Below, piece by piece: positions 9,986 to 10,604 of a stretch of DNA of 11,157 nucleotides. The notes under the pieces were generated by a model. It worked only from the letters and a program-made list of their open reading frames with translations, had not been told where the DNA came from and did not search any database. Origin of the DNA: a virus (Duplodnaviria; Heunggongvirae; Uroviricota; Caudoviricetes); the IMG/VR virus record IMGVR_UViG_2703718825_000008. The stretch is one strand, 5' to 3'. Position 1 is the first letter of the stretch; each line of letters opens with the position of its first letter. The position numbers and the translations under genes are program-made.

Positions 9986-10393
9986 ATGGAATTTAAAGAT
10001 TTACCAACGCCATTACAGGAAATGGCATCGAATATAGTTCGTTCACAACTGGCTACTCTTGACCTTAGTACCGCAGAAAAAGAAACCATCGATAATATGG
10101 TTCGTAATGTGCGCAATGCTTTTTCTGGGCTATATGGTTCTGATAATCAAAAGCAGGAAAGCGATGTTAATAAACGGGTAATTTCTGTTTGCGTGAATGG
10201 CCATGTTCTTTCATCAATCAAAACAGAAACGGCGACAGTCTTCGATTGCCTTTGCATTGTACAGAGCCTTGTTGATGCCCTGTTTCGTTCAGTGAATTTA
10301 GAAAATGATGCAAATCTGCGAGGGCGCATAATAGCACATCCATATGCACATACTTTAGGCTCTGTGGATATCAAAGATCCCACAAATCTTTAA
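9986..10393 (+). CDS. Hypothetical protein (135 aa), no recognisable family
   Basis: ATG at 9986 with GAGG upstream. This gene has no counterpart between ydfC and dicF in the K-12 Qin layout as I recall it. Confidence 0.55.
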   Translation: MEFKDLPTPLQEMASNIVRSQLATLDLSTAEKETIDNMVRNVRNAFSGLYGSDNQKQESDVNKRVISVCVNGHVLSSIKTETATVFDCLCIVQSLVDALFRSVNLENDANLRGRIIAHPYAHTLGSVDIKDPTNL

Positions 10394-10604
10394 TGAAATA
10401 GTTAACGCGAATTGTACTTGCTCTTTCGGTTGCTTTCAGAATACGCGTTGAAACTGCTGGCGGTAATTTGGTATTCCATTTATTAAAATCATGCCCGGGA
10501 AAGTACTCTTCGAAAATACTTTTAACTGCAGACTCGCCTATTGAAATGCTGCTTACCATGCGATTTTGATAAAGGCATTTAGCAATAAGAGTTGATTTTA
10601 ACAT
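10371..10604 (-). CDS. Hypothetical small protein (77 aa), convergent with the 135-aa gene
   Basis: ATG at 10604 preceded by AGGAGG at 5-nt spacing. AT-rich. Its 3' end overlaps the 135-aa ORF by 23 nt. Confidence 0.55.
   Translation of the reverse strand: MLKSTLIAKCLYQNRMVSSISIGESAVKSIFEEYFPGHDFNKWNTKLPPAVSTRILKATERASTIRVNYFIKDLWDL

Follow-up and report, generated by a model that had tools for sequence, protein, structure and literature searches.

The DNA analyzed here, referred to as the window, is a stretch of 11,157 nucleotides (nt) from a virus of the Caudoviricetes (IMG/VR record IMGVR_UViG_2703718825_000008), and the element in question is a pair of small convergent genes upstream of dicF. 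The dicBF operon is among the best-studied loci of cryptic prophages; the variable genes located just upstream of dicF have hitherto been little described. In the window, the DicA/DicC-type immunity genes, ydfC, DicF, and dicB follow each other in this order on one strand, which places the pair within an early operon of the dicBF (Qin) type. An identical RefSeq record, which also annotates a helix-turn-helix repressor, dicB, and a DUF1482 protein, positions the two hypothetical open reading frames (ORFs) between ydfC and dicB. The ORF listing agreed with an earlier note on this DNA, in which a plus-strand gene for a protein of 135 amino acids (aa) and a minus-strand gene for a protein of 77 aa were described as overlapping by 23 nt at their 3' ends. 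The same note had assigned a strong ribosome-binding site to each gene, and both sites were read directly from the sequence: GAGG at positions 9976-9979, six nt ahead of the 135-aa gene start, and AGGAGG four nt ahead of the 77-aa gene start on the minus strand. Coordinates are collected in Table 1.

Table 1. Features of the convergent gene pair and its surroundings (positions within the window)
Feature	Position	Strand	Remarks
ydfC homologue, left conserved neighbor of the cassette	9745..9963	+	RefSeq "protein YdfC"; phrog_1744 match
AT-rich cassette of 634 bp, absent from K-12 Qin	9984..10617	.	Contains both genes and both ribosome-binding sites; alignment with NC_000913.3
135-aa gene, WP_000394552.1	9986..10393	+	ATG start; ORF listing; RefSeq "hypothetical protein"
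N-terminal domain, aa 1-55 (MEFKDLP...GLY)	9986..10150	+	Common to E. coli prophage proteins of 122-212 aa
C-terminal "VNG" domain, aa 64-135	10175..10390	+	Homologous to stand-alone enterobacterial prophage proteins of 77-90 aa
3' overlap, 23 nt	10371..10393	both	Last seven codons and stop of either gene
77-aa gene, WP_000920491.1, convergent partner	10371..10604	-	ATG start; ORF listing; RefSeq "hypothetical protein"
Shine-Dalgarno AGGAGG of the 77-aa gene (complement of 10609-10614)	10605..10617	-	Within flank common to different cassettes
Conserved leader, cassette to dicF	10618..10938	.	Common to K-12 and other cassette types
DicF small RNA gene, downstream in the same operon	10939..10990	+	Rfam RF00039, 76.7 bits, E 6e-16

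Pairwise alignment to the Qin prophage of Escherichia coli K-12 MG1655 (NC_000913.3) revealed that the interval 9984-10617 is missing between ydfC and dicF, in agreement with the earlier note, and that both flanks of this segment, ydfC on one side and the leader of about 320 nt preceding dicF on the other, are nearly identical to K-12. The cassette is AT-rich, with a GC content of 39%, the window having 48% and the right flank 53%, and the lowest value was obtained for the 77-aa gene (36%), which had been noticed before. Prophages of numerous Shiga-toxin-producing E. coli strains (O157:H7, O145, O26, and O103) match the region with 100% identity, and one of these prophages adjoins an ompW fragment. 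The cassette, scored as the C-terminal domain together with the 77-aa gene, was present in 652 of 5426 complete E. coli genomes (about 12%), usually in one copy each; among the records listed, its carriers are predominantly Shiga-toxin-producing strains. Of the same genomes, 3226 contained some portion of the larger interval 9700-10700, and the pair occupies the same position in the sequenced phage Evi. The proposed accessory nature of the segment is borne out by this distribution and by its absence from K-12 Qin; the opposite case, in which both genes would be conserved core members of all DicA-type prophages with known functions, does not hold.

Neither protein belongs to a named family, as had been anticipated. 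The 77-aa protein matched phrog_10348 over its full length (residues 1-77 of 77, E = 1.1e-47), and the 135-aa protein matched phrog_1363 over residues 1-130 of 135 (E = 4.8e-47). Both are families of unknown function that carry no functional annotation. Scans against Pfam, NCBIfam, and PADLOC of both proteins, their neighbors, and the proteins of five other cassette types introduced below yielded nothing above threshold, the one exception being a ClpX-type zinc finger fused to a VNG domain (see below) at a single locus. PADLOC-DB 2.0 gave no defense match for the same set of proteins, and a comparison of the sequence profiles of both families with PDB sequences retrieved nothing. No literature was found under WP_000394552.1 or WP_000920491.1, guessed EDL933 locus tags gave unrelated mentions only, and the dicBF literature draws these genes merely as "non-conserved" boxes (PMC5069750).

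The N-terminal and C-terminal halves of the 135-aa protein matched separate PHROGs, with phrog_23433 covering aa 55-128. The protein is best described as a domain, here termed VNG, fused to an N-terminal domain specific to E. coli. The proteins that share the N-terminal domain have C-terminal parts that are mutually unrelated, and the allele of this domain found in the window occurs in 1518 of the 5426 E. coli genomes. AlphaFold2 (AF2) predicted two helices for it with low confidence, and the ratio of nonsynonymous to synonymous substitution rates (dN/dS) between two E. coli alleles was about 0.69. The VNG domain follows the pattern "VNG...T..A..DY...LE.EAN..GKT..H...G...I.D" over approximately 75 aa, with G, T, D, LE, A, G, and H invariant, and its median pairwise dN/dS of 0.30 indicates purifying selection. 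A word-indexed homology search with this domain retrieved close E. coli relatives only. The stand-alone relatives of 79-90 aa (P0156, P0158, and P0159) were found by an exhaustive HMMER search and by reading the loci. Stand-alone VNG proteins start with MKKQGR... or MSKSGR... and lead directly into a beta-hairpin. The AF2 model of the domain, of low confidence overall, consists of a strand and two helices followed by a tail, and the tail is conserved in sequence (GxxIxHxxFxxxGSxxIxD) with a predicted local distance difference test score (pLDDT) below 50. Besides occurring alone, the VNG domain is found fused to other N-termini, namely, a ClpX-type C4 zinc finger (locus L091, 4212-4682, minus strand; PF06689, 34.1 bits, above the Pfam threshold), a YdfC-like coiled coil (L098; similarity judged by eye), and a "KVFKVPA" segment. 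The zinc-finger fusion may hint at a link to ClpX or at dimerization.

The 77-aa protein is the more uniform of the two. Its homologues fell into 33 clusters, mostly of 77 aa, and the longer predicted forms differ solely by N-terminal extensions. They are 57-72% identical, and their named sources include Klebsiella, Raoultella, Dickeya, Xenorhabdus, Salmonella, Morganella, Yersinia, and Serratia; loci from Proteus and Photorhabdus were added by a genome scan. The family alignment contains 20 invariant columns. AF2 modeled the protein as a compact five-helix bundle with a pLDDT of 96.8, which we read as a predicted soluble rather than membrane-embedded protein. A median pairwise dN/dS of 0.15 indicates purifying selection, and the value among E. 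coli alleles was about 0.08. In locus L005, a second ORF called at 77 aa (4548-4781, plus strand) lies just upstream of the real 77-aa gene. The two sequences are unrelated, and the matching length looks like a coincidence.

Both ORFs were usually intact in a survey of 68 E. coli loci. In four of these (L099-L102, one E. coli lineage), a 13-nt tandem duplication (GTACTCTTCGAAA repeated twice, at a position equivalent to about 10490-10520 of the window) shifts the frame of the 77-aa gene. The neighboring 135-aa ORF is intact in all four, and its allele is strongly diverged in the C-terminal domain (74% identity). A single locus displayed the reciprocal state, with a frameshifted 135-aa gene and an intact 77-aa gene. 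Since alleles with either gene decayed exist, neither gene is indispensable to the host in the repressed prophage.

Outside E. coli, 24 loci were examined, 22 of which contain an intact gene of 77 or 78 aa. In 22 of 22, this gene converges on an opposite-strand gene that ends in the VNG domain. The overlap measures 23 nt in 20 of these loci and 26 nt in the two with the 78-aa form, and in the four loci that derive from Proteus the partner ORF is intact but without an ATG start. One of the two remaining loci, from Photorhabdus (L018), carries a truncated 77-aa gene. The same convergence with a VNG-domain gene was seen in 650 of the 652 E. coli genomes that bear the cassette. When phages with unrelated flanks were compared, nucleotide similarity was limited to the interval from about -68 to +447 relative to the 77-aa ATG. 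This interval takes in both genes and a short stretch ahead of the 77-aa gene, and therefore the two genes and the promoter move as one unit. Across all of these loci, comparison delimits a conserved unit of about 0.45-0.5 kb that consists of the VNG-domain gene, situated just behind the repressor-controlled early-left promoter, and the convergent 77-aa gene that overlaps it. By the same evidence, the unit is mobile and widespread in prophages of Enterobacterales.

The genetic surroundings of the unit outside E. coli provide a first indication of how its genes could be expressed. All 16 non-E. coli loci tested contain one copy of an extended -10 motif, TGnTAnnnT, at positions -39 to -43 relative to the start codon of the 77-aa gene, the probability of a chance occurrence anywhere in 120 nt being 0.14. 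We take this conserved motif as a predicted promoter that belongs to the 77-aa gene and faces the early-left promoter. The spacer of this conserved promoter contains a short inverted repeat, for which no meaningful consensus fold was obtained (-1.6 kcal/mol). In L004 and L007, operator motifs of the cI/cro intergenic region are found again directly ahead of the VNG gene, which is therefore the first gene of the early-left operon in these two phages. In the other loci, obvious promoter-operator arrangements are found in the leaders ahead of the VNG gene, and we infer the same position for them. In phage lambda, the usual first gene of the early-left operon is N, which encodes a protein of about 100 aa with an N-terminal arginine-rich RNA-binding motif. 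An N-type antiterminator was considered as the identity of the VNG protein and rejected, as the protein contains no arginine-rich motif and has no Pfam antiterminator match.

Two further observations were made in these regions. Several otherwise unrelated phages share a conserved leader motif, "CAGCGAACAGGCAGGACGCC...GGATGATTCGC", downstream of the early-left promoter and ahead of the VNG start codon, as seen in L004 (5452-5560), L088, and L098. The motif, which had no match in Rfam, may represent an RNA element, nut-like or of another kind. L004 also carries a 307-aa gene (5713-6636, minus strand) between the cI-like repressor and the early-left promoter, which matched PDC-S42 in PADLOC with an E value of 1e-85. 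In this phage, a defense candidate is located on the repressor side of the promoter and the VNG/77-aa module on the other side.

In E. coli, the inter-gene segment proved polymorphic when it was compared across related prophages. The site that follows ydfA/ydfC and precedes the dicF leader is a cassette locus with at least seven types, each of which combines the common N-terminal domain with a distinct C-terminal module and a distinct convergent small gene. Designated by the lengths of the plus-strand and convergent products, these are 135/77 aa (the type in the window, 23-nt overlap), 201/63 aa (23-nt overlap), 124/73 aa (11-nt overlap), 208/69 aa (abutting), 122/100 aa (77-nt overlap), 129/99 aa (131-nt overlap), and 133/about 92 aa. 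In the last of these, the convergent frame was broken in the two loci examined, and a 76-aa ORF with a 41-nt overlap was called. The alternative convergent genes showed no detectable relation to the 77-aa gene as remote homologues, with hhalign probabilities all below 7%, and no detectable relation among themselves.

The borders of the exchanged DNA are sharp. Convergent genes begin directly after one of two conserved flanks with a strong Shine-Dalgarno sequence, "CCTCAGGAGGGTGAA" or "ATGGAGGATAAA", and the "CCAACCCTCAGGAGGGTGAA" of the 77-aa gene also precedes the unrelated 63-aa, 73-aa, and broken ~92-aa convergent genes. Because the shared flank lies directly ahead of the convergent genes, the variable DNA starts exactly at the convergent start codon. 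At the other end, the breakpoint relative to the 201-aa allele lies just left of 10371, in the last codon or two before the overlap, at the 77-aa stop codon. Pairing of a C-terminal module with a particular convergent gene was also observed apart from the VNG domain. In 64 of 66 viral contigs, the neighbor of the 69-aa gene encodes the 208/212-aa protein, with no overlap between the two. Furthermore, a 119-aa protein with neither the N-terminal domain nor the VNG domain is accompanied by a relative of the 63-aa gene (54% identity); the C-terminus of this protein and the C-terminal extension found in the 201-aa protein are homologous (the "EVMxSELExxNIKPT" module). The 63/69-aa convergent gene and this module represent a second, independent pairing of an early-protein module with a convergent gene, found in two different host proteins. 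A separate observation concerns the region between the dicA-like repressor and ydfC, where a hypothetical gene of 99 aa (9373-9672, plus strand; phrog_21318, E 9e-67) takes the place of K-12 ydfA/ydfB. Its position suggests a second variable slot in the dicBF operon.

Transcription of the window itself can be approached by way of K-12, in which DicF is processed from a polycistronic transcript that runs from dicBp through ydfABC to dicF (PMC10448788). If the same path is followed, the transcript in the window must read antisense through the 77-aa gene. No intrinsic plus-strand terminator was found in the cassette. The only promoter candidate for the 77-aa gene in the window, TTTTCA-17-TAAACT, is weak, begins 117 nt upstream of the ATG, and is invariant also in K-12, which has no cassette. 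A promoter for this gene, if within the window, would have to lie at 10618-10938 or further right. This dicF leader of about 320 nt is highly conserved, with a mean column identity of 87% across six aligned loci, regardless of the preceding cassette and in K-12 as well, and contains several stem-forming inverted repeats (judged by eye). Its conservation is consistent with a role in the processing of the DicF precursor. Screening of the window and 11 related loci against Rfam detected no RNA family in or beside the module.

Based on these comparisons, we regard the pair as one allele of a mobile two-gene convergent module of temperate lambdoid phages, which is real and selected and to which no function is assigned. 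Our preferred interpretation, to which we give a probability of about 40%, is that the two genes encode cognate antagonists with reciprocal expression, working either as exclusion factor and self-escape or as toxin and immunity. Convergent overlapping transcription would make the expression of the two genes reciprocal. The 77-aa protein would be made in the repressed prophage, and the VNG-domain protein would be among the earliest products once the prophage is induced or a cell is infected; at that stage, strong early transcription would cross the 77-aa gene in antisense and shut it off. The two proteins probably bind each other directly, perhaps via the conserved C-terminal tail of the VNG protein. 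In the version to which we commit, the 77-aa protein would be an exclusion or host-modulating factor expressed by the lysogen, from which the phage would obtain early relief through its own VNG-domain protein. The data are equally compatible with the opposite roles, in which the early protein would be a toxin and the lysogen would make the immunity protein. Diversification of such pairs would explain the many alternative cassettes. Support for an antagonist pair comes from the co-occurrence of the two genes, the mosaic unit with unrelated flanks, the early-left position of one gene and the conserved promoter of the other, purifying selection on both, the second independent pair, the series of cassette types, and the course of the dicBp transcript. 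The confident fold of the 77-aa protein, together with the conserved VNG tail modeled with low confidence, was counted in its favor as well.

Several observations weigh against this interpretation. Pairing does not appear to be exclusive on the VNG side, given that the domain is also accompanied by unrelated convergent genes of 63 aa (23-nt overlap), 73 aa (47-nt overlap), and 149 aa (no overlap). A distant 77-aa-like homologue in Psychrosphaera (L019, 43% identity), the other of the two non-E. coli loci without an intact 77/78-aa gene, shows no VNG partner. Co-inheritance could follow merely from the physical overlap, and the frameshifted alleles of either gene persist with the partner intact. 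No homology to any defense, anti-defense, toxin, or antitoxin family was detected in the scans described above. The weakest point with regard to the window is the missing native promoter. No extended -10 motif occurs within 340 nt upstream of the 77-aa gene on the minus strand, the E. coli cassettes are without the native promoter of this gene, and no convincing sigma-70 replacement was found. Expression of the 77-aa gene is therefore considered putative here, and in AT-rich DNA it could additionally be silenced by H-NS.

Some of the same observations would be accounted for if the two were functionally independent accessory genes at a hot spot, directly behind the first early-left gene or genes, for the insertion of opposite-strand morons, with the 77-aa gene acting alone in lysogenic conversion or exclusion, the VNG protein having its own early function, and the overlap being an insertion accident frozen by dual coding. 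The alternative partners of the VNG domain, the exact exchange of the 77-aa ORF at its own stop and start codons, the decay of either gene next to an intact partner, and the AT-rich composition typical of morons all agree with this explanation. It is harder to reconcile with the fact that, in at least eight genera and despite unrelated flanks, the 77-aa gene was never seen without a neighboring VNG gene. In addition, the second convergent family remains associated with its plus-strand C-terminal module at 54% identity, even where the host protein differs, and the 69-aa gene stays with the 208/212-aa protein in nearly every contig without overlapping it. We consider independence the main rival, somewhat less likely than the antagonist pair. 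The cassette might instead be mainly regulatory, in which case convergent transcription would collide with the early operon and be antisense to it, damping leaky expression of toxic products encoded downstream (DicF, DicB, YdfD, and Kil) while the prophage is repressed, and the encoded proteins would be secondary. The convergent promoter does face the early-left promoter in every non-E. coli locus, the operon transcript has to cross the cassette, unhindered by a recognizable terminator, to reach dicF and dicB, and every cassette type retains a convergent gene, whatever it encodes. However, pure interference would need neither the strong protein-level constraint on the 77-aa protein, as reflected in its dN/dS, invariant columns, and confident model, nor the conserved strong Shine-Dalgarno sequences. 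K-12 Qin does without any cassette, and no promoter was found for such a role in the window itself, which makes a mainly regulatory function unlikely.

A classical toxin-antitoxin addiction module stabilizing the prophage, whether of type II or type I, is very unlikely. Two small adjacent genes in a prophage would suit such a module, the predicted strand-helix-helix with its tail is, in a low-confidence model, loosely antitoxin-like, and convergent transcripts with 3' overlap occur in some type I systems. Yet the genes converge with a 3' overlap instead of forming a co-directional autoregulated operon as in type II systems, and no toxin or antitoxin homology was detected in Pfam, NCBIfam, PADLOC, or the comparison of profiles with PDB sequences. 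In the case of type I, both strands encode conserved proteins under purifying selection instead of a protein and an RNA, and the 77-aa protein is modeled as a five-helix globular, soluble bundle and not as a small membrane peptide. Natural frameshifts of either gene are also tolerated. The overall interpretation offered in the earlier note was, accordingly, upheld in part: the accessory insertion of AT-rich DNA without a named family stands, the toxin-antitoxin-like or exclusion function given there as an example stays putative, and the arrangement is not that of a type II toxin-antitoxin operon. Finally, one or both ORFs could be chance ORFs in AT-rich DNA, as might be supposed from their hypothetical-only annotation and from the fact that no expression data were found. 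Homologues of mostly uniform length at 57-72% identity, low dN/dS, a high-confidence fold, and conservation of the VNG domain in several genera make this extremely improbable.

An extension of the antagonist-pair interpretation concerns the site as a whole. The dicBF site might be a polymorphic "kin-discrimination" locus of lambdoid prophages, at which a protein of the lysogen blocks incoming or awakening phages, the cognate early module neutralizes it, and only phages with a matching cassette escape. We regard this as a speculative and rather improbable extension. If true, it would represent an intracellular analogue of bacteriocin/immunity or polymorphic toxin systems that is switched by convergent overlapping transcription, and it would be coupled to DicF and DicB output in enterohemorrhagic E. 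coli (EHEC). DicF has been linked to EHEC virulence control by a study cited in PMC10448788, and the locus raises the question of a modulating effect of convergent transcription on DicF and DicB in pathogens. As far as the comparisons go, the domain split of the 135-aa protein, the conserved VNG/77-aa unit across Enterobacterales, and the polymorphic cassette locus upstream of dicF appear to be new. Two "hypothetical proteins" become a concrete hypothesis on prophage self-recognition, exclusion, or control of toxicity. If their function is mundane, the value lies mainly in better annotation, with the 135-aa protein divided into two domains and phrog_23433 and phrog_10348 recognized as paired families.

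Other features of the window were noted along the way. A hok/sok type I locus is present, with Rfam sok at 3875-4024 (minus strand, 103.9 bits) and a hokD coding sequence at about 3722-3877 (minus strand) in the identical RefSeq record. Three clustered tRNA genes, Arg-tct, Lys-ttt, and Met-cat, are located at 351-591 (minus strand), of which only two reached the Rfam threshold. Clusters of this kind are characteristically found in the late regions of lambdoid and Stx-type phages. A 252-aa ORF (4213-4971, minus strand) corresponds to a gene annotated "AcfC family adhesin Paa" in an identical O157 record and appears to be a virulence-associated cargo gene of the prophage. In the otherwise identical prophage of O157 strain PV15-279 (L001, 6177-7389), IS1203 is inserted in the replication-gene region; the window (about 6850-7965) has no such insertion, and its 371-aa ORF is intact.

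Several known systems resemble the pair in part. Type I loci of Bacillus prophages, txpA/RatA and bsrG/SR4, likewise lie within prophages and are convergent with complementary 3' ends, but they consist of a noncoding RNA and a short hydrophobic peptide, whereas both members here would be conserved globular proteins. Phage morons and hot spots, such as lambda rexAB next to cI and the defense hot spots of P2 and P4 (PMC9122126), also carry variable AT-rich cargo between conserved genes, probably with its own expression signals. They differ in that the cargo here is a convergent pair inside the dicBF operon, one member of which belongs to the early operon itself, and includes no known defense genes. 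With CdiA-CT/CdiI and Rhs-CT/RhsI, the locus shares a conserved N-terminal part and swappable C-terminal modules, each with its own adjacent small gene, which is the organization of polymorphic effector-immunity systems and was found at the cassette site. The CdiA and Rhs proteins, however, are large and secreted and have co-directional immunity genes, and no recognizable toxin domain was detected here. The sieB-esc system of P22 and lambda and BstA-aba are likewise situated near the immunity region or the early-left operon and combine a lysogen factor with phage-encoded relief, involving an antisense RNA in the case of sieB/esc. Esc is an in-frame shorter sieB product and aba is a DNA element, whereas two separate convergent protein genes are found here. 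They have no homology with the pair, for which exclusion is a putative function.

The most extensive resemblance in gene order is to the operons of the pore-forming colicins E1, A, and Ia, in which a repressor-controlled, SOS-linked operon contains an effector gene, a small convergent gene, and a downstream lysis or killing gene. This order was found in the window and in L001, an architectural resemblance only; here the downstream killing functions would be those of dicB and the DUF1482/YdfD-type gene, and a promoter for the convergent gene itself is presumed. A polymorphic effector C-terminus with a cognate small gene is a logic common to both. In contrast to the colicins, there is no similarity in sequence or fold, the plus-strand proteins are small (about 120-210 aa) and have no recognizable secretion-related domain, the 135-aa protein has no recognizable colicin domain in Pfam, and the 77-aa protein is predicted by its model to be soluble and not an integral membrane immunity protein, so that neither a membrane immunity protein nor an exported bacteriocin was recognized. 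Membership in the colicin, sieB/esc, BstA/aba, or polymorphic toxin-immunity systems is not supported. As analogues, pore-forming colicin operons appear to be the closest by architecture, and P22 sieB/esc, BstA/aba, and polymorphic toxin-immunity loci appear to be the closest by logic.

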